Positions 10,407 through 26,617 of a stretch of DNA of 64,000 bases are shown here, piece by piece. The stretch lies in the NCBI GenBank assembly GCA_965216315.1, contig CBDCFN010000016.1:1120001-1184000 (forward strand). Direction: 5' to 3'. Position 1 is the first letter of the stretch. Every line of letters starts with the position of its first letter. The stretch comes from a bacterium. Lineage in GTDB: Bacteria; UBA10199; 2-02-FULL-50-16; JAJFLM01. The notes below the pieces were generated by a model. That model had not been told where the DNA came from. It did not search any database and saw nothing but the letters and a program-made list of their open reading frames with translations. Made by a program: the position numbers and the translations under genes.

Positions 10407-11491
10407 AATAAAAGATAGACTCGAGGTCCTTAAAAAGAAGTACGCGGACCTGAGGAGGTCGCTTTGACCTGGAAGACAAGCGCACTCGCCTTGACTCCTT
10501 AGAGGCGCAGGCCGGCGCCCCCGATTTTTGGAATGACAGCGCCAAAGCCGGGCAGGTTTCTCAACAGATCAATAACATCAAGAGTGAACTCGATTTTCAC
10601 GAGCGTTTGCAGGGTCATCTCGACGATGTCGAGACGAGCTGTGAGCTCTTAAAGGAATCAGCTGATTCCAACCTTGAGGCCGAGGCGGAGCAAACACTGG
10701 TCCAACTCAGTAACGAGCTCGATGAACTGGAGTTTCAGCGTATGCTATCCGGTCCGAACGACGAGGCCAATGCAATTCTGCAAGTCAATGCGGGGGCCGG
10801 TGGGACCGAGTCCTGTGATTGGGCGGAAATGCTCCTGCGCATGTATCGGCGGTACTGTGAACGTCAAGGTTTTGAGCACCAGCTCGTCGACTTTACCGCG
10901 GGAGACCAAGCGGGCTTTCGCTCGGCCACATTGACGGTCAATGGCCCGCATGCCTTTGGTTATTTGCGCGGGGAGAACGGCGTGCATCGCCTGGTCCGCA
11001 TTTCTCCCTTTGACGCGAGCAAACGCCGGCATACTTCCTTTGCATCGGTTTTTGTCTTGCCCGATATTGAAGACACGGTGGATATTGAGATCAATCCGGC
11101 GGATTTAAGGGTGGATACTTTCCGTTCCAGCGGGGCGGGAGGGCAACATGTCAATAAGACAGACTCCGCAATTCGCATCACGCACATCCCGACGAATATC
11201 GTCGTTGCCTGTCAAAACGAGCGCTCGCAGCATCGTAATCGCGACATGGCGATGAAGCTGTTGAAAGCTAAGCTTTACGAGCTTGAGCAGGAAAAACAAC
11301 GCAAGGAACGTGAGAAACTTGAAGACGCCAAGCAAGACATTGCCTGGGGTTCCCAGATCCGTTCCTATGTCCTGCATCCTTACCGCATGGTTAAAGATCA
11401 TCGCACGAACTACGAAATGGGTAACGCCGATGCCGTGCTGGACGGGGATATTTCTGAGTTTATCCGGCAAAATCTATTGCGTACCAGCTAA
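10393..11491 (+). CDS. prfB: Peptide chain release factor 2, with programmed +1 frameshift (about 365 aa)
   Basis: 24 codons from ATG 10393 to CTT-TGA, then +1 frame DLEDK... continuous with the SPF and GGQ motifs. Confidence 0.95.
10453..10468 (+). promoter_or_regulatory. RF2 programmed +1 ribosomal frameshift site
   Basis: AGGAGG-TCG-CTT-TGA-C: internal Shine-Dalgarno 3 nt before the canonical CTTTGAC slippery stop. Confidence 0.95.
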
Positions 11492-11646: not shown

Positions 11647-14364
11647 ATGTCACATCGCATTAAAGCAATATTTTCTTCAATTTCACTGCTACTGGTTATT
11701 TTTGCCTTTGCGGCCTGTCAGGACGTCGCTTCGGACTCGAAGTCCGACACAGCCAGTGATGAATCGGTTGGAATCAATATTGTCGGCGAGGATGGTATCG
11801 TTATCGGAGATGCCCCGCAGAGTAATGAAAATGTTGCCGATCCGGTCCAGGCCACCGCGGTCGATCCATGCGAATGGTCCAAGGACGCGGTCACGTTTGA
11901 GGCGACCGGACCTATTTATAAGAGTAGTACCTTTCAAGGGACGCAGGATACCTCGACGACGTTGAGTTGGACGGTTAATACGAATTGTACGCCTTCAAAA
12001 TTAATTATTGAGAGTTTTGATGGGAGTAGTTCAGAATACAGTGGGGCGAAGGCTCAAAGCTGGACCAAGCAGATTCCGGCTTTGAGCCAGAGTGCCACGT
12101 TTAAGCTCGTTCTGCTTTATAAGAAAAATAATCAGAGTACTGTTGTACTGGAGAAATCCATCGAGGTGCCCGTGATCGTGATGGAAGATACCTTTGATGT
12201 CAGCGTAACGGCTTGCAATAATGAAACTTCAACAGAATCAAAATGCGAGCTAAACACCAATCTGACCCCTCAAAACGACTATAAAGATCCGAGCGATTAT
12301 CTCGTTACTTTTTCGATGACGAATGATCCTGAACTGAAACTCTGCATCCGTTCGCCTCATGCGGGAATTGAAGCTCAAGCCAGCAACTTCGATTGGAAGG
12401 GCTTATTTATTAAGCAGGCCTATGCGGAATACAATGAGTTGGCCGTCGTCAAAAAAGAATTTGTTTCTAATAAAGGGTTTGCCAATAAGACGGTTATGCA
12501 ACTGCATCCTGGATATTTCTATAATGATCCGGCGCCGTCACTTGGTACGGTGGTCGGAAAGGTCGAATGCTTTGATGAAAATAATATGACCATGAGTGCG
12601 GACGGCACGCAGTTGATCGGACAATTTGAATTTAAGGCAACGGCGAGCACGGACATCGTCTACTATGCCGAGCGCGCTGGTGTGAAATTCATGGAAGCGA
12701 CGATTCCGCTGAAGGTCAAGATTATCCATCCTTCATCCGTTCTCGACGTGAAACGGGCGATCCCCGGCGTAGGTGCCAAAAACTACGACTTGGTCTTGGA
12801 AGAAGACAGCCCGGTTCTGGAGTTCAAAGTGAAATTAAGTGACGGGGAGCACTTTGCTTTAGTTACTGATGCGACGGATAAACTCTATTCAGAATCGACC
12901 TGGACCGCGAGCAGCGCGAATATGGAAAAAATCAACGGACAGAGCAGTGCGACGCCACCGCCGGCTGCAAAGGAAGCAATATGCAAGATCGATAGCGAAG
13001 GGTCATACGGGAATAGCGACTGTAAGGACAAAGGCTATGATCAAAATTTTATCGAGAAGGTCCAAAAAGTTTTTCCGAAGCGCAAGGTTCACGTCTTTAA
13101 ATTCAATCAGCACGATCTCGAAGAGACCTATTACTACGCGCGAGCGATCGCCTTTGATACGAAGTCAGCATTTATCGGATTCGGTTATGGTGATTATCTG
13201 AGGGTCGGTGTGGTTGAAAATGAAGGTCTGCCCGCCCCTCAAATTCGTTTTGCGGCCTCAATGGGTGTCGGAACGGATTATAAGAGCGTTGATTACTTCT
13301 GCACAGATGACTTTAGAAAGAAGATCTTTGAAGGGCCGACTCAAGCATCGATAGCCGGTAAATCGAGAGGGCTTAAGTCACTGACAGTAGAGCGGACCGG
13401 TTGCAGTGCCTCCGGTAATTCTTCCGTCAACGACGTCTATGGCGAAGAGGGTGTCTTCGATTTCCATTCGACCTGCCATTATAATAGTTTGAACCCGGGT
13501 TGGACCCTGACGGCGGTTGATTTCTTGGGTAAAACCCACACGAAGACCTGTAAATATGCGGCGAGTGGTTGGCCTATCTACGTTACGCTCGAAGGAGATA
13601 TTGGCAATAACATCGGTACGGATCACGTCGCGTTTAAGGTGGACAAGCACGAGCAGGGCGGCCCGAATCCCTATCTAGCGACTAAATTCGAAGCCGTCTC
13701 AGGCCATAGCTGTACCATTACGAATGGAGGGGAACAGGATTGGACCGATCCGAGAGATTATGCGGATCATATTGCGCCCGGCATCACGAATGTCGGTTTG
13801 AATTGCTGGAAAGCGCGTCTCAAGGTCAAAATGATTGACGGGAAATGGTATTACGTTCGCTTTAGCGCGGCGACGGCCAACGATAGTCTAAAGAGCAACG
13901 GTTATGTGTGGGAGGCGACGCAGCATCAACACTGGGCGACCTCCCTCAGTGGGAAAAGCGAAAGCCAAAAGGCGCGCTTTACCCTGACGTTTCCGCCGCC
14001 GCTTAAATTTGACCTGGTTGGCCATAAAGGGACACTCCCTTGGGGAGATAAGATCACCACGTGTGGCTACCTGTCTGACGACGATCTGGCCGGATACGAC
14101 CTGCATGCCTTTGCACGGGCCTTCTATTTCGACGGCAAGCACGTGACGAAGGTGAGTTGCGGCTGCACGGGAGGATGTACGGGCCAGGGAGGTAATTTGC
14201 TCAACGTCAGCGATGCCGAGTCGTTTGCGAATGAAGACGTTGGTTTCGTATGGGCGGGTGAAAAAGACGGGGGCGGTCGTTGGGATTTTACCTGTACGGC
14301 CACCGGTGTCGCCGGACAGGAAATAAAACGAGATTTTCATTGGTCTTGTCCCAATAAGGACTAG
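11647..14364 (+). CDS. Large Cys-rich multi-domain lipoprotein, paralog 1
   Basis: Signal peptide ending in lipobox FAAC; STTLSW Ig/PKD-like pattern; start may be 11629 or 11647. Confidence 0.8.
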   Translation: MSHRIKAIFSSISLLLVIFAFAACQDVASDSKSDTASDESVGINIVGEDGIVIGDAPQSNENVADPVQATAVDPCEWSKDAVTFEATGPIYKSSTFQGTQDTSTTLSWTVNTNCTPSKLIIESFDGSSSEYSGAKAQSWTKQIPALSQSATFKLVLLYKKNNQSTVVLEKSIEVPVIVMEDTFDVSVTACNNETSTESKCELNTNLTPQNDYKDPSDYLVTFSMTNDPELKLCIRSPHAGIEAQASNFDWKGLFIKQAYAEYNELAVVKKEFVSNKGFANKTVMQLHPGYFYNDPAPSLGTVVGKVECFDENNMTMSADGTQLIGQFEFKATASTDIVYYAERAGVKFMEATIPLKVKIIHPSSVLDVKRAIPGVGAKNYDLVLEEDSPVLEFKVKLSDGEHFALVTDATDKLYSESTWTASSANMEKINGQSSATPPPAAKEAICKIDSEGSYGNSDCKDKGYDQNFIEKVQKVFPKRKVHVFKFNQHDLEETYYYARAIAFDTKSAFIGFGYGDYLRVGVVENEGLPAPQIRFAASMGVGTDYKSVDYFCTDDFRKKIFEGPTQASIAGKSRGLKSLTVERTGCSASGNSSVNDVYGEEGVFDFHSTCHYNSLNPGWTLTAVDFLGKTHTKTCKYAASGWPIYVTLEGDIGNNIGTDHVAFKVDKHEQGGPNPYLATKFEAVSGHSCTITNGGEQDWTDPRDYADHIAPGITNVGLNCWKARLKVKMIDGKWYYVRFSAATANDSLKSNGYVWEATQHQHWATSLSGKSESQKARFTLTFPPPLKFDLVGHKGTLPWGDKITTCGYLSDDDLAGYDLHAFARAFYFDGKHVTKVSCGCTGGCTGQGGNLLNVSDAESFANEDVGFVWAGEKDGGGRWDFTCTATGVAGQEIKRDFHWSCPNKD

Positions 14365-14437: not shown

Positions 14438-17371
14438 ATGGAAATGTCGCACCGCGTTAAAACATTTTTCTCTCTATCCTCTGCATTTATCCTGATTTTA
14501 GTGCTGGCTGCCTGCGAGATCGAGCGTGGGCTTACTTTAGACAAGGTCGAGCCCGCTCAGGCGATGCCGGGATCCGTTGTTCGGCTTATCGGCGGTGGTT
14601 TTAATGATCTGAATCAGTTGGAGGTGAAACTCGGCGAAACGCCGGTGGCCTTTGCCGAAGAGACCGCTCAACTGGTCAGTCAGGGCGAGGATGATTATAA
14701 GGGGAATGAGATTGCCGTGCGCGTGCCTGCGCAATTACCGCTAGGGTCCTACCTTTTTAGCGTGAAGAGCGGAGAGGAAGTCGCGACGCTCCCGTTTACG
14801 GTGGGCGCGGGCGGAGGTGCGATCGTTATCGATCCGGCAGCCGGGGAAGATGAGGCCCCCCAGCCAAGCGAGAGCGAAGACGAACCGGTGCAGACGGCCA
14901 CCATAGATCCCTGTGAGTGGCCCGAAGAAGCGGTCGATTTTCAAGCGACCGGACCGATTTACAAGAGTAGCACGTATCAGGGCGACCAGGACACGTCGAC
15001 GACGCTGAGTTGGACGGTTAATACGAATTGCACGCCCTCCAAGCTGATCATCAAGAGTTTTGACGGCAGCACCTCGGAATACAGCGGAGCCAAGGCCCAA
15101 AACTGGACCAAGCAGATCCCGGCGCTGAATCAGACGGCTACTTTTCAGCTAATCCTTATGTATAAAAAGGACAATGCGAATACCGTCGTGCTGGAGAAAT
15201 CGCTCGAGGTTCCGGTCGTTGTGATGGAGGAGGCCTTCGACGTAAAGGTGACGGCGTGTAATAAGGCAACCTCCACGGAAACGAAGTGCGATCATAATAC
15301 GAATTGGACGCCGCAGAATAATTACCAGGATCCCAGTGATTATGTGGTGACTTTTTCGATGACGAATGATCCAACGCTCAAGCTTTGCATACGCTCCCCG
15401 CATGCCGGCGTTGAATCCCAGGCGCGCCACTTTGATTGGAAAAATCTCTTCATCAAGGAGGCCTATGCTATTTCCAATGATCTGCAGGTTATTCACCAGA
15501 AAGGGTTTATTGAAAAGGGATTGAAGCACAAGGGCAATTTGTACGTATTTCCAGGTTTATCTTATAACGATCCGCCCCCATCGGTCGGAACGGTCGTCGG
15601 TAAGGTCGAGTGTTTTGATTCGAATAATATGCTCGTGAGTCCGGATGGGAAGCTGTTGACCGGACAGTTCGAGTTCAAGGCGACGGCAAGCACGGACATC
15701 GTCTACTATGCTGAGCGCGACAGTGTGAAATTTATGGAAGCGACGATTCCGCTGAAGGTCAAGATTATCCATCCTTCGTCCGTTCTCGACGTGAAGAGGG
15801 CCATTCCCGGTGTTGGCGCCAAAAACTACGACTTGGTTTTGGAAGAAGATAGTCCGGTATTAGAATTTAAAGTAAAATTAAGTGATGGTGAGCAATTTGC
15901 CCTGGTGACCGATGCGACGGACAAGCTTTATTCAGAGGCCACTTGGACCGCTAGCGACGCGAATAAAGAAAAAATCAATGGTCAGAGCAGTGCGGCGCCG
16001 CCGGGGGCAGCGAAGACAGCGACGTGTAAGATCATGAGTAGCGAAGAGACTTCCGGTGCGAAGAACTGCAAGAATCATGGCTATGATGAAGCCTTCATTG
16101 AGAAAGTCCGCAAGGTCTTGCCTAAGCGCACAGTTCATGTCTTCAAGTTCGCCGTCAACGAACAATCCGAAACCTATTATTACGCCAAGGCGATGGCCTT
16201 TGACACCAAGACGGTGGCGCTGGGTTTTGGTTATGGCGACTATTTGCAGGTCGGGACGGTGAGTGAGGCCGGTCTGCCGGCGCCGCAAGTTAAATTTAGC
16301 GGGATGCCGGAGTTCGGGGCCGCTTACCATGACGTCGATTCTTTTTGTACGACGGCATTCAAGAATGAACTCTTCAAGGGCAATCTGTCGGCCATGATGA
16401 CCGGTGAGACGCGGGGGGCGAAGTCGTTTAAAATTACGCGGACCGGTTGTAAGTCGTCCGGTATCGCATCCATCAATGATCGTTATGGTGAAGAGGGAGT
16501 CTTCGACTTCAGCTACGAATGTAATTATGACGGCATGAATCCGGGCTTCAACGTCGAGATGGTTGACTTCCTTGGTGTCAAACGGACGGAGACCTGCAAA
16601 TTTAATGTCAAGATGTGGCCGATGGAATTAAAATTGACCGGTCATTATGATGGCGACAGTACGTCTGATCGGCATGATTTCTCGATCGAAAAAATCGAAC
16701 AGCCGGGCCCGGATCCTATAAAAACAATCGAAGTGCGCCGGGTGCACAATGCCTGTAGTGGGGCGTTCCTCAATAATCCGGTCAATGTCGAGGATAGCCG
16801 GGATTTTTCGCGTACGTTCAGCGTAGAAGGGAAGGGTATCGACTGCTGGCAAATCGGGGTCAAGGTCGGAACCCTCGAAGGGACAAAGTGGGTAAAATGG
16901 AACACCAGCAGTAAGTCAGTCAAAAACATTGGTAAGAAGTGGACAGCGACAGGGTGGAGTTCTTCGCGTGGCAATAGTGAGACGATCTTTTTTCCGCCGA
17001 AATTAGAATTTAGTGGTGACTTTGGCAGTGCTCATTGCTGGTGGGAAACCTCCTGGGGGGACGAAGAACTCGTCAAGGGCGAGTTTAATTGGACCTATTC
17101 AGGAAGGCATATCAAAGATGTCTCCTGTAGTTGTAATAACGGTGCAAATAAGGTCTCCGGTACTGTCGGTAATATCAAGGCCGAGAAAGAGAATGGGCAG
17201 ACACTTGGCTATCGATGGACCGGTGGGACCGATAATGAAAAATTCTGGGATTGTAGCTGTACCGCGACAGGCTATGGGGATCAGGGTGATCGCTCAAGTT
17301 CATGGTGGGCCTGTTGTGACGGTGATGAACATGATGAGAGTGGACAAACTCCCTGCGGTAATAAGCGGTAA
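14438..17371 (+). CDS. Large Cys-rich lipoprotein, paralog 2, with extra N-terminal IPT/TIG-like domain
   Basis: Lipobox LAAC; LTLDKVEPAQAMPGSVVRLIGGGF...IAVRVP...LPFTV is an IPT/TIG pattern; 56-aa stretch identical to paralog 1. Confidence 0.8.
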   Translation: MEMSHRVKTFFSLSSAFILILVLAACEIERGLTLDKVEPAQAMPGSVVRLIGGGFNDLNQLEVKLGETPVAFAEETAQLVSQGEDDYKGNEIAVRVPAQLPLGSYLFSVKSGEEVATLPFTVGAGGGAIVIDPAAGEDEAPQPSESEDEPVQTATIDPCEWPEEAVDFQATGPIYKSSTYQGDQDTSTTLSWTVNTNCTPSKLIIKSFDGSTSEYSGAKAQNWTKQIPALNQTATFQLILMYKKDNANTVVLEKSLEVPVVVMEEAFDVKVTACNKATSTETKCDHNTNWTPQNNYQDPSDYVVTFSMTNDPTLKLCIRSPHAGVESQARHFDWKNLFIKEAYAISNDLQVIHQKGFIEKGLKHKGNLYVFPGLSYNDPPPSVGTVVGKVECFDSNNMLVSPDGKLLTGQFEFKATASTDIVYYAERDSVKFMEATIPLKVKIIHPSSVLDVKRAIPGVGAKNYDLVLEEDSPVLEFKVKLSDGEQFALVTDATDKLYSEATWTASDANKEKINGQSSAAPPGAAKTATCKIMSSEETSGAKNCKNHGYDEAFIEKVRKVLPKRTVHVFKFAVNEQSETYYYAKAMAFDTKTVALGFGYGDYLQVGTVSEAGLPAPQVKFSGMPEFGAAYHDVDSFCTTAFKNELFKGNLSAMMTGETRGAKSFKITRTGCKSSGIASINDRYGEEGVFDFSYECNYDGMNPGFNVEMVDFLGVKRTETCKFNVKMWPMELKLTGHYDGDSTSDRHDFSIEKIEQPGPDPIKTIEVRRVHNACSGAFLNNPVNVEDSRDFSRTFSVEGKGIDCWQIGVKVGTLEGTKWVKWNTSSKSVKNIGKKWTATGWSSSRGNSETIFFPPKLEFSGDFGSAHCWWETSWGDEELVKGEFNWTYSGRHIKDVSCSCNNGANKVSGTVGNIKAEKENGQTLGYRWTGGTDNEKFWDCSCTATGYGDQGDRSSSWWACCDGDEHDESGQTPCGNKR

Positions 17372-17538: not shown

Positions 17539-20268
17539 ATGGCAAAGCTTACTTGTCAGGGCCTCGCCCTGTTGTGTGTTTCCCTTACCTTGATTCTCAC
17601 TTCCTGCCTTAAACCCGCGAATGACAATGATAATAATAAGCCCATTATAAGCGAATCAGCGGACGGTGATCTTGGGGTCGAGGTGAGCGGTCTTCCCGAG
17701 TCGGGTGCGATTGATGTCGATCCTGTGGTTGGAGATGAAGGTGAGGCGAGTAGCCCTCAGGCGACGGTTGTTGAACCTCCCTGCGAATGGCCCGCCGAAG
17801 AGATTTCCTTTGCCGGAAACGCCCCGGTTTACAAGAGTAATGCGGTCGATGAAACCGCTCAGGATCTCTCCACGCAGCTGAGTTGGAACATCACCACCGG
17901 ATGCGCTCCGGATAAAGTTATTATTACAACCCCTCATGGGACGTCCGAGTATGCGGGGGCGCGTGCGCAGAGCTGGAGTAAGGATATCCCCAAACTTGAG
18001 GAGACGACGAGCTATACGCTGGTTATCATTCACAAGAACGAAGTCGTGCATGAAGAATCAGTTGAGATTCCCTTGGTTGTTATGGAGGATAACTTTCAAG
18101 TTTCAGTTACGGCTGTCAACAAGGTAACCGGCAGTCAACATATGAGTTGGACGCCCCAGCAAAATTACCAAGATCCACGCACTTATAAAGTCAGCTATTC
18201 TTTTAGCGCCGAGCTCGATAAGGTCTGTATCCGTTCGCCTCACGGGACGGCGCCGTCGCGCTTTCAGCAGAATAGAAATCTTCGGCCGCAACAACGTCAA
18301 TTGGATCGTCATGATTTCGAGCTCCAGGAAGCGATTATTCAGAATCGCCTGAGCCGCTGGATAGGCGATGCTCTGATTGGCGTTGCTCATGCCGCTCCGC
18401 TCCAAGTTGATCCTCTCTATGCGGCGGTCGTTTGGGTCGATGGAGCGCCCAAGGCACCGACAGTATCGGGATATGAGGAGTGTTTCGGCAAGGATGACTC
18501 CGTGCTCGATGCCCAGGGAAAGAATTACGAGGGTGAGTTCGAATTTGAATTGAATGGCAGTACGGCGATTGAATCCTACGGCATGCTCAATGGCGTCAAA
18601 ATATTTGAAAAGTCAACGCCGCTCAACGTGACGATTGTTAAGCCGTCTTCCGACTTTGCAGCGAAACGCGCGATCCCCGGTGTCGGTGCCAAACACTATG
18701 ATCTCGTCGAGAATGGACTGAGCTCGGTCATCGAATTTAAAGTCGAATTTAGTGATAGCGTGCAGGCCGCGCTCGTAACCGACGTGGCAACGAAGCTGTA
18801 TTCCGAGTCGACTTGGACGGCGAGTGACACGAATATGCAAATCATCAATGGGACCCAGGCCGGTACGTTGCCGGCGGCGAAGTCTGCGGTGTGCGATATC
18901 GATCCCGATGCGGCGTCAACCTCGTCCACAATCAAACCATGCACGGACGCCGGCTTTACAGCCAACTTTATCGATAAAATAAAGACGACTTATCCTAATC
19001 GTCACATGAATGTTTTCAAATTCAATGTTCATGATCTCGCCGAAAGTTACTATTATGCCAAGGCCTCCCAGTTTAAGACCAAGTCTGCCCTGGTCGGTGT
19101 TGGCTATGAAGATTATTTGCAGCAGAGCGAAACGGAAGCGACAGAAATCCCTGAGCCGGGCATTCGCTTTACTCCCACGGCCGAGTACAGCAGTGATTAT
19201 GTTGGAGTCAATAATTTCTGTTCCAATGGTTTTAAGAATACCCTTTTTGCGGGAGCGCAATCCGCAATATTGGCCGGTGAGACGCGCGGCGTTAAATCGA
19301 TGGAAATCCGGCAGACCGGTTGCGATTCCAATCAGGGTAGCACGGATGTTCATCCCTACTATGGTGAACCCGGAGTGATCAATTTTAATTCTAAATGTTT
19401 CTATGACGGGATGAATCCAGGTTACACCGTGACGACAGAAGATCTCCTTGGGAATGAAACGAATACGACCTGCAAATTTAACGTGACGATGTGGGACATC
19501 AAACTGCAGCTGACCAGCAAAACCGATAACCTGCTAGAAGATCGCTATGGCTTTAAGCTTGAAAAAATCGAGCAACCGGGCCCGGATCCGATCAAAGAGC
19601 TTAAAGTTGTCAAAGTTGACAGCCATTGTGGTGGGGCCTTTCTGAATACGGCTGTCAATGTCGAGGATGATCGCGATTACGAGCGTACTTTTGATGTAAC
19701 GAACCAAGGGGTTGATTGTTGGAAGATTGCCGTCCAGGCAAAGACTTACGACGGTTGGAAGTATGTCACTTGGACGACGCATAGCCAGCAGGTCAAAAAT
19801 ACCGGCTACCAATGGCATTCAAAAAGCATTAGCAAAAATACCCGTGGCAATAATGAAACGGCTTTTTTCCCGCCGCGTATGCATATCGATAAGTGGCAAC
19901 GGACATCGAGTCAGTGTTGGAGCACATTTACGTATATTGGTGCTTGCAGCATAGCGTGCACTATCTGGAATGAGAAGATTGATAAGTACGAAGCCGATTA
20001 CAAGCTGAGTGGACGCCATATCGACCGTTTGGAAGTGACCTGCAATCGCGGCTCACTAAGCGGCGTGAGTGTCAGCGGAAGCGACCGAGAGCGCTTTGTG
20101 GATAAGGCTCTCAGCTATAGTTCCAATGCTAACTCGGATGTGCGTACGAAGATTAAATATGATTGTGAAGTGACGGCCACGGGGGTCGGTGATCAGCCTA
20201 AATTAACCCGGTCGTTTGCCCGGTGGGCCAAAGCTGAAGGGAATTCGTGTACGATGGGGAATCAATAA
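17539..20268 (+). CDS. Large Cys-rich lipoprotein, paralog 3
   Basis: ATG 17539 after GGAG; lipobox LTSC; shares CIRSPH, KRAIPGVGAK and KLYSESTWTAS with paralogs 1 and 2. Confidence 0.8.
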   Translation: MAKLTCQGLALLCVSLTLILTSCLKPANDNDNNKPIISESADGDLGVEVSGLPESGAIDVDPVVGDEGEASSPQATVVEPPCEWPAEEISFAGNAPVYKSNAVDETAQDLSTQLSWNITTGCAPDKVIITTPHGTSEYAGARAQSWSKDIPKLEETTSYTLVIIHKNEVVHEESVEIPLVVMEDNFQVSVTAVNKVTGSQHMSWTPQQNYQDPRTYKVSYSFSAELDKVCIRSPHGTAPSRFQQNRNLRPQQRQLDRHDFELQEAIIQNRLSRWIGDALIGVAHAAPLQVDPLYAAVVWVDGAPKAPTVSGYEECFGKDDSVLDAQGKNYEGEFEFELNGSTAIESYGMLNGVKIFEKSTPLNVTIVKPSSDFAAKRAIPGVGAKHYDLVENGLSSVIEFKVEFSDSVQAALVTDVATKLYSESTWTASDTNMQIINGTQAGTLPAAKSAVCDIDPDAASTSSTIKPCTDAGFTANFIDKIKTTYPNRHMNVFKFNVHDLAESYYYAKASQFKTKSALVGVGYEDYLQQSETEATEIPEPGIRFTPTAEYSSDYVGVNNFCSNGFKNTLFAGAQSAILAGETRGVKSMEIRQTGCDSNQGSTDVHPYYGEPGVINFNSKCFYDGMNPGYTVTTEDLLGNETNTTCKFNVTMWDIKLQLTSKTDNLLEDRYGFKLEKIEQPGPDPIKELKVVKVDSHCGGAFLNTAVNVEDDRDYERTFDVTNQGVDCWKIAVQAKTYDGWKYVTWTTHSQQVKNTGYQWHSKSISKNTRGNNETAFFPPRMHIDKWQRTSSQCWSTFTYIGACSIACTIWNEKIDKYEADYKLSGRHIDRLEVTCNRGSLSGVSVSGSDRERFVDKALSYSSNANSDVRTKIKYDCEVTATGVGDQPKLTRSFARWAKAEGNSCTMGNQ

Positions 20269-20439: not shown

Positions 20440-23190
20440 GTGACGTCGCTACGCTTTTTTATCTTATTATCCCTCATTATGGGCCTTACGGCCTGCTCCG
20501 GTGCGAAAAAATCGGAGGTAAACGATCCGGGGGTGACCGTCAGTCCGGGCGTCGATATTGTCACTCCTGATTCCACGGAAAGTGAGGAGGCGGAAGAAGA
20601 ACCTGCCATCCAACCCGATGCGCCTGCCGCGATTGACCCCGATGAATTTAAGAATGCGATGTTGGTTGCGGACCCCGCCACGGTCTATGTCGGGCAAGGA
20701 GAGGAAGTCAAAAAGACCGGTGGCTCGACGACGCTCAAATGGGGCATTGAGGGTGAATTTGATAAGATCGCCTTCGTGCGTAAGGCGGATCAATCGATTA
20801 TTTTCGAGACGACCCAGGGTTCTTCCGAGAAAGAAACCGGCCTGCTTTATGAAACGACGACGGCCGTCATGAAGGTTAAAAAACAAGGCCAGTGGTTGGA
20901 TGGTCCTGAAGTCGTGATTGAGGTGGAGAAGGTCTCTGACCTCTATCCATTGAACGTTGTTGTGACCCCCTATCCGGGCCGCCTGCCGCCGGGACAGGAT
21001 ACCCGCAAAATGGAAGCGGCTTTTATGGTCGCCAATAATTTTTACGATAAGATCTGTATCAAGGTCGGTTCCCTGAGCAAGCATCAGCCGCCGAATGGCG
21101 GCAAGTTGACGATGTCTTTGATCGGCTTTCAAGTCGTGGTACCGACGGAGCCGTTGTTAGAAGATATCACCAAGTGTTTTGACAAGCCGGCGGACCCGGA
21201 CCAGCCTTTCGTCGGTTCGGTCGAGTTTACGCCCGAGCCGCTGGACGCGGACAAGACGCAAAAAATGGTGCCGGTGCATATCTGGGGGTTTAAGGGCGAA
21301 AAGAAATACTATCAGAATGTCTCGTACGGAGTACTCAGACGGGTGCCGCCCTCGGTCGATCTGCGCGTTGCGCGCACGGTGCCGGGAGGGGACGCGGAGC
21401 TCAAAGATCTTTTTCTGACGGGCTTTACCAACGTGCTTGAAATGCACGTCGAGGCCCAATATCTGCAGGATCTCTACATTGTGACTAATGCGGCGGATAA
21501 ACTGTACAACGAGGCCTATATTCAGGCGGACCCGGTCCATCCGCCCAAGCGAAAAAACGTCAATCCTATTCTCAACGAACACTGTCAGGTCTCTTTGCAA
21601 AAACCGGGCGGCGAGCTTGGTAAAGTCACTAACGCCGGCAATCAGTGTCCCGCTGTCGTCAAGACCGTCTTGGGTCAGCGTATCAAGGGCTATGAAGGTC
21701 TATTCTCCGTGTTTAAAATCAGTAAAGGCGGGGCTGGCGGCGTGATGATGAGCCAAGGGGGTGTCAGCGGCTTGAAGGCGAATACGCAGCCGCAGCAGCA
21801 ACAAGCGGATACGCCGAGCCCGACGCAACTGGCCCTCAACGCGCAAGGGAGTCTGGCTCCGGTCAGGCTCTACGTACCGGCGACGCGTGATTTTAATACC
21901 TTTGTCATGGTCTTAGGCATTGCGGCCGACGATAAGAAGGTCGCTGAGGCGGTGCACGAGGCCCTGCCGACGCCGGACTGGGAAGAGTTGCTCTCGATCC
22001 CCGACGCCGAATGGATGGAGAAGTTTCAGAATCAGGCTCCTTTCGTCGAGTTTAACGTGCTCAACGTCGGCCGAGTCGATAAGGCCAAGGCCGAACACCT
22101 CAACCCCGACAGCTGTTCGGGTGAGCTGGAAGTGAAAACGCCGGCTAACATGAAGAATGCGGTCCGCTTCACTTTGCGTTGTACGGTTACCGGTGACAAG
22201 GAACTTGGCTGGAAGGTGACCGTTCCGACCATATTGGGTGGCGACAAGAAGCAGACGAAGATTATTCGCTATTCGATGCGTGATTGGCGTTTCAAGATCA
22301 AGCTGAAGGAAATCGTCAAACAGGACGGTGCTCCCAAGGGCTTTGATCAGATCACTTGGGAGGTCAAGGCGGATCCGCCGCCTGGAGCGATTGGCGGCGC
22401 GGGCCCGGGCCCGAATCCCTTTGAGAAGATCAGAATGGTTCCCTATCGAATCAGGGAGTACGATACCAATGACCGCTTTTGTACGGGCTGGGATGACGAG
22501 GGTTACAAATTTACCGAGGCCGGTGAGTCGCGACTCTTTACGTTTAAAAATTATGGCTTGAATTGCCATAGCTTTAAGTTGCAAGGGCGCCGCATTGGCA
22601 AGGCGGAGTGGGAGGACTTTCCCGCCAAAGAAGTGTCGAAGGAGTTGCACAAATATGTCACGGAAGGGCCGGGCTCCCTTCACAATTCGACGATAGAGGC
22701 GCGCCCGGCACCGAGCCTTACCTGGAAGGAAGAATCGGTTAATTGTGAGTGGGAAGAAGTTTGCGACGAAGATGATTGTGATAAGTATATGCATGCCTGC
22801 TGGGGGTGTTTCGGGGGGCCCTTGGCATGCGCGATCGCGTGTGGGATAGGTGTTAAAAAGCGCAACGATTGCCGGGACAACATTGAATGTCATCAGGAGC
22901 TTATCGGTGAGCGCAAGGTCAAGATTGAGGCGGAACACATCCAGACGATGAATGTTCTCGCTTTGGAGTCTCCCGACGATCACGATGATATCCAGCATGG
23001 CGGCAGTGACTACTGTGATCTGCTCAATCGAGAGCTCGACGACTATTTGGAGAAGATGGAGTATGTCAAAGACGAATTCTCTCACCCCGCGTTCGAGGAA
23101 GAGTTTGCCTGTAAGCTCTATTTGCGGGGGGCCGGCGGCCATCCCTCGGTTGAGACGGTTGTCTCGTCCGGCAAATGCACTCCAAACTAG
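20440..23190 (+). CDS. Large Cys-rich lipoprotein, paralog 4 (most divergent)
   Basis: GTG after GGAGG; lipobox LTAC; ADPATV..G.STTLKW Ig/PKD-like pattern; homologous motifs DKICIK/KCFD, ARTVPG, ADKLYNE, GPGPNP, GLNC. Confidence 0.78.
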   Translation: MTSLRFFILLSLIMGLTACSGAKKSEVNDPGVTVSPGVDIVTPDSTESEEAEEEPAIQPDAPAAIDPDEFKNAMLVADPATVYVGQGEEVKKTGGSTTLKWGIEGEFDKIAFVRKADQSIIFETTQGSSEKETGLLYETTTAVMKVKKQGQWLDGPEVVIEVEKVSDLYPLNVVVTPYPGRLPPGQDTRKMEAAFMVANNFYDKICIKVGSLSKHQPPNGGKLTMSLIGFQVVVPTEPLLEDITKCFDKPADPDQPFVGSVEFTPEPLDADKTQKMVPVHIWGFKGEKKYYQNVSYGVLRRVPPSVDLRVARTVPGGDAELKDLFLTGFTNVLEMHVEAQYLQDLYIVTNAADKLYNEAYIQADPVHPPKRKNVNPILNEHCQVSLQKPGGELGKVTNAGNQCPAVVKTVLGQRIKGYEGLFSVFKISKGGAGGVMMSQGGVSGLKANTQPQQQQADTPSPTQLALNAQGSLAPVRLYVPATRDFNTFVMVLGIAADDKKVAEAVHEALPTPDWEELLSIPDAEWMEKFQNQAPFVEFNVLNVGRVDKAKAEHLNPDSCSGELEVKTPANMKNAVRFTLRCTVTGDKELGWKVTVPTILGGDKKQTKIIRYSMRDWRFKIKLKEIVKQDGAPKGFDQITWEVKADPPPGAIGGAGPGPNPFEKIRMVPYRIREYDTNDRFCTGWDDEGYKFTEAGESRLFTFKNYGLNCHSFKLQGRRIGKAEWEDFPAKEVSKELHKYVTEGPGSLHNSTIEARPAPSLTWKEESVNCEWEEVCDEDDCDKYMHACWGCFGGPLACAIACGIGVKKRNDCRDNIECHQELIGERKVKIEAEHIQTMNVLALESPDDHDDIQHGGSDYCDLLNRELDDYLEKMEYVKDEFSHPAFEEEFACKLYLRGAGGHPSVETVVSSGKCTPN

Positions 23191-25120: not shown

Positions 25121-26617
25121 ATGAAGACATCACCCTTGATTGAAGAGCGGCTTAAGAAACTCGAGGAACTCAAGGCCGCGGATATACCGGCCTATCCAAA
25201 CGATATCCAGGTGTCGGACCGCATCGCCGAGGTGTCGGAGCGTTTTGGGGGGCAGTCCCGTGAGGAGTTGGAGAAAGTAACCGCGACGGTTCAACTGGCG
25301 GGGCGCATGATGTCGGTGCGTCTCTTTGGCAAGGCCGGTTTTGCTCACCTCAAGGACAGCAGCGGTAAGATCCAAATTTTCATTGAAAAAAAGGGACTTA
25401 GCGAGGAAGAGTTCAAGCTTTTCAAGAAGGCCGATATCGGGGATTTTTTGTGGGTCGAAGGGGCCCCGATGCGCACCAAAACGGGGGAGCTCTCCATCCA
25501 TGCCCAAAAATTGCGCTTGGTGACCAAGTCACTCCACCCTTTGCCGGAGAAATGGCACGGCCTGCAGGACAAGGAGATTCGCTATCGCAAGCGCTATGTG
25601 GATCTCATCGTCAATGATGAGGTGCAGCAGGTTTTTCGGAGGCGCTCGGCTATTGTCAGTCAAATTCGCCAATTCTTCATCGAGCGGGAATTTTTAGAGG
25701 TGGAGACGCCGATGATGCATTCTTTGGCCGGCGGCGCGGCGGCACGCCCCTTTGAAACCCACCATAATGCACTTGATTTGGAGCTGTACTTGCGTATCGC
25801 CCCTGAACTTTATCTTAAGCGCCTCATTGTGGGTGGCTTTGATCGCGTCTTTGAATTGAATCGTAATTTTCGTAACGAAGGGATTTCGACCCAACATAAT
25901 CCTGAATTTACGATGCTGGAATTTTATCAGGCTTATGCGCGCCACGAAGATCTCATGGCATTAACCGAAGAGTTGCTTAGTGAGCTGGCACAGGAGATCT
26001 GTGGGGGAACCGATGTCATGTATGCCGGGGAGAAACTTTCGTTTAAGGCGCCTTTCGCGCGGCATAATTTTGAGGAGTCCTTAGTCGAGATTGGCGGGTT
26101 GCCGCCTGAAGTCATCAAGGATGCCGCTGTAGCTGAGAAGATTGCCGAAGAGAATGGCATTAATCCCAAGTCCGGTGGAACGCTGGCTTCATTGCACATG
26201 GCCTTGCTCGAAAAGTTTGTGGAGCCGAAACTGATTCAGCCGACCTACATTACCAAGTTTCCGGCGGATGTTTCACCGCTGGCGCGGCGTGATGATAGTG
26301 ACCCCCAGTATACGGAGCGTTTTGAATTGTATATAGCGGGTCGGGAAATCGCGAACGGCTTTTCAGAGCTTAATGATCCGATTGATCAAGAAGAGCGCTT
26401 TAAAAACCAGCTTAAGGCCAAGCAGCGCGGTGATGACGAAGCCATGCCTTATGATGCTGATTTTGTGGAAGCCTTGATGTATGGCATGCCGCCGACGGCT
26501 GGTGAAGGAATCGGTATTGATCGGTTGGTGATGTTATTGACGGATCAGCCCTCCATTAGGGATGTAATCTGTTTTCCGCTGCTTCGACCTGAGGTCTCTG
26601 ATACTAAGGGTGCCTAA
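25121..26617 (+). CDS. lysS: Lysine--tRNA ligase (class II)
   Basis: LPEKWHGL, YLRIAPELYLKRL, FRNEG, HNPEFTMLEFY, YGMPPTAGEGIGIDRL. Confidence 0.98.
   Translation: MKTSPLIEERLKKLEELKAADIPAYPNDIQVSDRIAEVSERFGGQSREELEKVTATVQLAGRMMSVRLFGKAGFAHLKDSSGKIQIFIEKKGLSEEEFKLFKKADIGDFLWVEGAPMRTKTGELSIHAQKLRLVTKSLHPLPEKWHGLQDKEIRYRKRYVDLIVNDEVQQVFRRRSAIVSQIRQFFIEREFLEVETPMMHSLAGGAAARPFETHHNALDLELYLRIAPELYLKRLIVGGFDRVFELNRNFRNEGISTQHNPEFTMLEFYQAYARHEDLMALTEELLSELAQEICGGTDVMYAGEKLSFKAPFARHNFEESLVEIGGLPPEVIKDAAVAEKIAEENGINPKSGGTLASLHMALLEKFVEPKLIQPTYITKFPADVSPLARRDDSDPQYTERFELYIAGREIANGFSELNDPIDQEERFKNQLKAKQRGDDEAMPYDADFVEALMYGMPPTAGEGIGIDRLVMLLTDQPSIRDVICFPLLRPEVSDTKGA

Follow-up and report, generated by a model that had tools for sequence, protein, structure and literature searches.

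What does a 49-residue segment with nine cysteines do near the C-terminus of a bacterial lipoprotein that has no named relative? The segment lies in a stretch of 64,000 nucleotides (contig CBDCFN010000016.1 of assembly GCA_965216315.1, positions 1,120,001 to 1,184,000; hereafter, the window) in which four same-strand neighbours, P1 to P4, are collinear paralogous lipoprotein genes. It belongs to the fourth and most divergent of them, P4 (20440..23190, + strand; 916 amino acids (aa); lipobox LTAC), where it covers residues 769-817 (22744..22890, +) in the last sixth of the open reading frame (ORF). Its translation is exactly the one quoted in the original prediction, which described a hypervariable, cysteine-stapled hydrophobic hairpin at the tip of the terminal domain, and it has no match in Pfam, NCBIfam, PDB sequences or the ESM Atlas. 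The reading that we tentatively favour, with somewhat less than even confidence, is that the segment could serve a surface lipoprotein as an exposed hydrophobic contact element that is cross-linked by oxidation.

The nine cysteines occupy segment positions 1, 7, 12, 19, 22, 29, 33, 43 and 49. The first part is an arm of residues 769-786 (CEWEEVCDEDDCDKYMHA; 22744..22797, +) with eight D/E, one K and three cysteines, inside which the match to the family profile ends. It is followed by an uncharged hydrophobic core, residues 787-805 (CWGCFGGPLACAIACGIGV; 22798..22854, +), with four cysteines, and by a C-side arm, residues 806-817 (KKRNDCRDNIEC; 22855..22890, +), which contains KKR and has four K/R, three D/E and two cysteines. 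Of the two charged arms that had been proposed, the acidic one is thus evident (8 D/E versus 1 K), whereas the basic one is weakly basic (4 K/R versus 3 D/E). The Kyte-Doolittle (KD) mean of the core is 1.62 over 19 residues, which within P4 is second to the signal peptide only, and the core is the only internal stretch of such hydrophobicity in the family. Beyond the segment P4 continues with an acidic tail (residues 818-916; 22891..23187, +; 22 D/E, 9 K/R, three cysteines) that has no detectable relative; segment and tail together hold 12 cysteines. Over these 148 codons the codon-position GC is 0.595/0.365/0.622, a normal pattern, and the tail fits coding in the P4 frame. An antisense ORF of 483 aa opposite the 3' half of P4 (21913-23364, −) was rejected as a gene: it matched no family, and its codon score is what one expects of a shadow frame.

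The core has a homologous, shorter counterpart in P3 (17539..20268, +; 909 aa from ATG; lipobox LTSC). Residues 805-823 of P3 (CWSTFTYIGACSIACTIWN; 19915..19971, +), inside the family-conserved tail, align without gaps to residues 787-805 of P4 with 9/19 identities, giving the common motif C-W-x2-F-x5-A-C-x-I-A-C-x-I. When the P3 19-mer was scanned over 1,365,882 six-frame ORF positions, the P4 core was the best non-self match, with a score of 41 against 35 for the next. The original prediction had singled out AC(S/A)IAC as common to the two paralogs, and this was borne out: among the 6370 six-frame open frames of at least 100 aa in the genome, AC[SA]IAC occurs in P3 and P4 only. The DNA of the two motifs differs at synonymous positions and no repeat family joins them, the direct repeats lying elsewhere; it is therefore the protein sequence that has been kept alike, and a recent copy event does not explain the similarity. 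Nor was recent gene conversion at the loop seen, and there is no sign of recent exchange between the copies. Judged by sequence, the motif, with 9/19 identities in a surrounding 23%, is kept by selection.

At the corresponding place the other paralogs carry unrelated sequences. The P1 loop (LPWGDKITTCGY; 14035..14070, +) is of a polar type and the P2 loop (CWWETSWGDEE; 17036..17068, +) of a polar/acidic type; the coordinates given earlier for the P2 loop, starting at 17036, and for the P3 loop, CWSTFTYIGACSIACTIW at 19915-19968, were right. In an alignment of P1 to P3, the mean pairwise identity of a 25-column window over the loop is 0.02 versus 0.455 overall, the lowest value of the whole protein; the next-lowest windows are in the N-terminal linker (0.063 and 0.098) and, within the folded part, at 0.159. 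Family members from outside the window have further unrelated, mostly polar sequences at the loop. The sequences thus fall into two loop types, a polar one in P1, P2 and the outside members, and a hydrophobic one with cysteines in P3 and P4. The term hypervariable, which had been applied to the whole spot, fits the comparison between paralogs P1 to P3 but not the core, of which the 9/19 motif is kept between P3 and P4. Within the population, two contigs of 49,017 and 604 bases, from two of four sequencing runs, cover the segment and show 0 differences from the window; both runs come from one study, the longer contig's run is possibly the source sample, and contigs hide rare variants, so the identity shows the absence of gross variation only. 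In one of the other two runs the segment is uncovered, and in the other the contigs end short of it; no RNA run covering the region was found.

The four proteins are paralogs by several measures. In a global alignment of the clear paralogs P1 (11647..14364, +; 905 aa from ATG; lipobox FAAC), P2 (14438..17371, +; 977 aa; lipobox LAAC) and P3, the latter two are 57% and 38% identical to P1, respectively. P4 is a distant paralog: BLASTP to P3 gave two collinear matches (E values of 3e-7 and 3e-4) at an overall identity of 23%, and hhalign matched P4 residues 574-730 to the family C-terminal profile with a probability of 93.8%. The lipoboxes FAAC, LAAC, LTSC and LTAC lie at residues 19-26 of P1 to P4, as assigned, like the signal peptides, by pattern matching, and in each protein the most hydrophobic 19-mer precedes the lipobox; by this pattern all four paralogs count as lipoproteins. 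Two of the three full-length family members from outside the window also have a lipobox.

How far the family homology extends into P4 bears directly on what the segment is. The family profile matches P4 up to window position 22758, five codons into the segment, and hhalign up to residue 730. The original prediction had placed the insert at a common position in the last domain, with the downstream EHI of P4 as the equivalent of the G(K/R)H(V/I) of the paralogs. For P3, an insert in a loop is borne out: downstream of the motif, the tail can be aligned with those of all other members, which share an invariant cysteine (position 243 of the modelled fragment) and a T-A pair in a TATG-like stretch, and in the model described below the motif is a coil between two strands. 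With a strand on either side, in a tail whose conservation in six members includes the invariant cysteine, the motif is therefore an extracytoplasmic loop in P3. For P4, on the other hand, such a placement is not supported. Compared with a profile of the six family tails, the 99-aa tail of P4 scores 2.6 against a shuffle mean of 2.1, with 39/100 shuffles as good. The EHI anchor is therefore a guess, and the segment could equally begin a different C-terminal module.

The end of the family match also bears on a less favoured explanation: P4, as the most diverged copy, might have had its last 148 residues replaced, or they might be decaying, through recombination or a frame change long ago, and they would then have no specific function. 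It would account for the family homology stopping at 22758, for the low model confidence of the tail (25-41; see below) and for the finding that residues 757-916 have no relative in the 92 other phylum genomes or among shorter and near-length proteins. However, no stop interrupts the frame over these 148 codons, where codon-position GC is normal, and none of the other frames at the 3' end of P4 hides a family tail (all tblastn E values >0.1). Moreover, P3 has the core motif at the equivalent position, the even number of cysteines is kept, and the segment is identical in the contigs of two runs. We regard a functionless end as unlikely.

We evaluated the proposed disulfides from the distribution of cysteines and the oxidative machinery of the genome. 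Excluding the lipid-anchor cysteine, the numbers of cysteines in the seven full-length members are 20, 22, 18, 20, 18, 12 and 14, all even, which would happen by chance with a probability of about 1/128. The genome encodes VKOR (96 bits) in one 444-aa open frame with a thioredoxin-like domain (C16:477507-478679, −), and two further DsbA-like genes; DsbB was not found in this 98%-complete genome. The lipoprotein export signals, the even cysteine counts and the VKOR and DsbA-like genes indirectly support disulfide bonding in general. The idea of stapling therefore stands to that extent, but not in its specific form, a nested ladder of pairs 7-49, 12-43, 19-33 and 22-29. The rungs of such a ladder would have unequal arms (position sums of 56, 55, 52 and 51), and the inner rungs 19-33 and 22-29 are disfavoured by the P3 homologue of the core, which has three cysteines only. 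In the member with the fewest cysteines, the cysteine at the start of the loop and the invariant cysteine after the loop are the sole candidate partners for each other, so that the same pair is likely in P3. If the first loop cysteine of P3 is paired in this way, the two cysteines of C-S-I-A-C are left to pair with each other, and their homologues in P4, C797 and C801, would then form a local pair with one another, rather than bonding to C790 and C787.

The same cysteines could instead be ligands of a metal (Zn, Cu or an Fe-S cluster). Nine cysteines and two histidines within about 50 residues, one CxxC (CWGC) and one CxxxC would be compatible with such a site, and the genome has other cysteine-dense open frames, some of them ferredoxin-like. 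However, the lipoprotein signal directs the protein to an envelope where VKOR and DsbA-like proteins act as oxidants, its CxxC is single, and there are neither paired knuckles nor the CxxCxxCxxxCP spacing. In addition, no metal-binding family matched, and the cysteine parity is even across the family. A metal site is accordingly very unlikely.

We then modelled the C-terminal 360 residues of P4 (557-916) and the P3 counterpart with AlphaFold2 (AF2). The P4 model, built on a 7-row alignment, has a mean predicted local distance difference test score (pLDDT) of 58, with values of 65-88 in the first 200 residues, which are all beta, 45-54 in the segment and 25-41 in most of the tail. In the segment, HACWGCF and LACAIACGIG are modelled as strands joined by a GGP turn. 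This strand-turn-strand is what a hairpin with its apex at the turn requires, but at a pLDDT of 45-54 it is a hint only. The P3 model has a mean pLDDT of 59, and its loop is a coil with a pLDDT of <50 between strands at positions 190-196 and 225-234 of the fragment. A VIA-align fold search returned generic immunoglobulin (Ig)/fibronectin type III (FnIII)-like sandwiches only, with a best Z of 9.0 (7-8 being the typical background of the tool), and Foldseek found nothing at E ≤0.001 in the PDB. The region before the segment may thus be an Ig/FnIII-like sandwich, as suggested by an all-beta model of pLDDT 65-88 with matches at Z 7-9 and no Pfam or Foldseek match. No family or ESM Atlas match identified the segment, with its pLDDT of 45-54, as a disulfide-rich knob or knottin-like mini-domain.

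The P4 core resembles fusion loops that are stabilised by disulfides, as in class II viral fusion proteins and in HAP2. By this analogy, the core might be a membrane-inserting tip, a disulfide-stiffened Gly/aromatic/Cys loop on a beta-sandwich that dips into a membrane. The composition W-G-C-F-G-G-P-L between cysteines, uncharged with charged arms around it, the modelled beta-sandwich scaffold, and the retention of the motif between paralogs that are otherwise 23% identical would all suit such a tip. Support from the fold is absent, however: HAP2 domain III was one of many Ig-like matches (Z 8.0, root-mean-square deviation 3.1 over 96 residues), within the 7-8 background, besides the empty Foldseek search. 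Neither the family libraries nor one literature search for fusion-loop-like elements in bacterial lipoproteins gave a comparable element; the papers listed by the latter were on viruses, eukaryotic fusogens or drug delivery. Although the P4 core shares with the class II proteins and HAP2 a Gly/aromatic/Cys-rich uncharged loop on an all-beta scaffold, it has no sequence or significant fold relation to them, its place is close to the C-terminus of a lipoprotein, whereas theirs is the tip of a central domain, and trimeric or stem-anchor features are not seen. We consider a fusion-loop-like tip decidedly unlikely, and it is very improbable that the P3/P4 motif is a tip for gripping or perturbing the membrane of another cell, lengthened in P4 to a charged, cysteine-laddered stalk.

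A hydrophobic stretch followed by a basic cluster could also be embedded in the bacterium's own membrane. In this alternative, the segment is a degenerate or atypical internal anchor resembling a sorting tag, and the acidic 99-aa tail is cytoplasmic or processed off. We therefore compared the segment with the C-terminal tags of the same genome, which uses cysteine-containing ones heavily. At least 14 genome ORFs end with GGCSL or GGCGC followed by a polar spacer, then a hydrophobic stretch and last a cluster of Arg/Lys (e.g. C16:2205454-2209323). Of three control tags, one matched JDVT-CTERM above the cut-off (27.1 bits; cut-off 27) and two matched MYXO-CTERM below it (18.2 and 15.3 bits; cut-off 20). 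The bodies of these three tag proteins resemble MtsC-type cohesion proteins. The KD values of the genome's tags are 1.38-2.11 in 14 tag-like rows and 0.95 in one non-tag row, and the median on a summed hydrophobicity scale is 3.15 over all 15 pattern-picked ORFs. With a KD of 1.62 and a summed value of 3.66, the P4 core is within the range of the real tags; since these score alike, hydrophobicity does not separate a loop from a membrane helix and was dropped as a discriminator.

The layout of the segment, WGC followed by an uncharged stretch of 15-19 residues and KKR, resembles the tripartite one of the MYXO-CTERM and JDVT-CTERM tags in its order of a cysteine motif, an uncharged stretch and a basic cluster, and the family homology of P4 ends just where the segment starts. 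The position in the protein differs: sorting domains are at the extreme C-terminus, whereas 99 residues follow residue 817 in P4, with no second signal peptide after the segment. An internal MYXO-CTERM motif has been published for MXAN_5598, internal tags being rare exceptions (PMC11980579). Furthermore, the polar spacer between the cysteine and the hydrophobic stretch, present in the genome's own tags, is missing, and Gly-Gly-Pro and four cysteines lie inside the hydrophobic part. P4 751-837 and the P3 loop matched none of the NCBIfam sorting models (including TIGR03901 and NF033191) at E ≤10, while each of the three control tags matched at least one. The homologous P3 motif, with a KD of 0.88 and no basic cluster, is an internal loop of a conserved extracytoplasmic tail domain, and three cysteines are kept in the P4 tail, making the P4 total even. 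Taken together, we judge a membrane anchor to be unlikely.

The contact-element reading that we favour can be set out as follows. It builds on the sequence itself, the paralogy, the lipoboxes, the conservation of the P3/P4 motif and the presence of an oxidative folding system, to which it adds disulfides, exposure and contact function as its conditional parts. P4 is the most diverged of four tandem cysteine-rich, putatively beta-sandwich lipoproteins. Exported and held by a lipid anchor, they would fold under oxidising conditions in the envelope of a Gram-negative bacterium that is uncultured and has a small genome. Towards the C-terminus, family members have a conserved cysteine followed by a segment free in length and sequence, of which the P3/P4 version holds the common uncharged motif; in P4 this motif is flanked by the acidic 18-residue arm with its three cysteines and the 12-residue KKR arm with its two. 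The outcome may be a disulfide-cross-linked, extracytoplasmic protrusion that holds a greasy Gly/Ala/Cys/aromatic surface rigid and exposed, possibly to make contact with a partner, be it a protein, a lipid surface or another cell.

Several observations weigh against this proposal. The pLDDT over the segment is <55 in both models, so that its fold and exposure stay conjectural. Beyond 22758, P4 has no detectable family similarity, and the segment may not be a loop in a conserved domain; P4 also lacks the invariant cysteine found after the loop in each of the other six. In hydrophobicity the core equals the transmembrane parts of the sorting tags in this genome, which suits contact with a membrane, but a membrane anchor, for which the KKR after the core would also speak, fits equally. 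Finally, the protein and phylum-genome searches with P4 gave no homologue against which its conservation could be judged.

The rarity extends to the family as a whole. A profile of the four paralogs matched 7 proteins among 1.84 billion representatives: three proteins of the window, one protein from a genome of the same family, two shorter full-length members and one N-terminal fragment. The family C-terminal profile matched 2 of 93 phylum genomes, the present one included. Searches of P1 to P4, the segment and the tail against Pfam and NCBIfam returned sub-threshold noise only (MMM1, DUF6680 and Synapsin_C), and PDB sequence searches with the family profile and P4 757-916 gave no significant match. 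For P4 757-916, neither the 93 phylum genomes nor the proteins that are shorter or of near length contained any relative but P4 itself. Word-based searches of 5.8 billion proteins recovered the window's own proteins only, and a pattern scan of the contig collection genome_contigs with the family alignment detected no relative. The ESM Atlas gave no usable match for residues 755-830 and scores of ≤0.76 for 818-916. By sequence comparison, the family is an orphan without a named relative.

The array lies between prfB (10607-11491) and lysS (25121-26617), with Lnt upstream and LolC, LolE, LolD, BamA and Skp downstream. Lnt, prfB, lysS, lolC/E/D, bamA and skp, at 8856-32679 of the window, form a block kept across many phyla. 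Among 80 loci fetched around LysS relatives, prfB was upstream of lysS in 32, and in 29 of these 32 the matches were <400 bases apart; none of the 80 contained relatives of P1 to P4 or of the 516-aa gene that follows them. Because the gap is mostly short elsewhere and is 13.6 kb here, filled by the four lipoprotein genes and the 516-aa TPR gene, the array and this gene are an insertion into a widely kept block. In the genome of the same family, Lnt and prfB are followed by one 963-aa member of the lipoprotein family before the contig ends, which indicates that the position of the array is older than the present genome. The nearest LysS matches were from metagenome-assembled genomes labelled Deltaproteobacteria (61% and 56% identity).

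Some further features of the locus were noted. The 516-aa gene directly after P4 (23261-24811, +) has a single C-terminal TPR match and no other family match; an HExxH motif (LYHEIAHAI) was seen by eye, and there is no evident signal peptide. The Pfam match of the long prfB frame starts at position 47 of the profile, and CTTTGAC at 10462-10468 (+), upstream of this frame, is probably the programmed +1 frameshift site for which prfB is well known. P2 (14438-14900 of the window) and its homologue in the same-family genome (residues 24-125) have behind the lipobox an additional N-terminal module (VEPA..GSVVRLIG.GF...), missing from P1, P3 and P4; by eye it is IPT/TIG-like, with no Pfam match. In the N-terminal half of P3 (18411-18570), low-depth contigs of two runs carry about 25 substitutions and a 6-base insertion, which suggests a second strain or a mis-laid paralog.

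Two known kinds of surface protein invite comparison with the array. TraA of Myxococcus xanthus is the polymorphic receptor for outer-membrane exchange (PMC11980579). It is a cysteine-rich cell-surface protein with a variable recognition part, as P4 may be. Both proteins are from a deltaproteobacteria-type lineage, but no homology was detected between them, and TraA is anchored by MYXO-CTERM whereas P4 is anchored by its N-terminal lipobox. The variable part of TraA is N-terminal. Tandem arrays of paralogous surface lipoproteins are similar to P1 to P4 in that adjacent lipobox paralogs diverge most in one surface-loop region; P1 to P4 differ in that their family has no named relative and the loop has no sign of recent exchange.

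The segment is at present an orphan sequence feature, and its value is that of a lead, not a result. If it is an exposed, cross-linked contact surface, it would mark the working end of an unnamed family of surface lipoproteins whose genes, in an uncultured lineage, lie inside the block for lipoprotein and outer-membrane biogenesis. If it inserts into membranes, viral and gamete fusion loops would have in it a rare counterpart from bacteria. With two paralogs that carry the motif and two that do not, the array would, if the contact-element reading is true, offer a handle on what these cells bind.

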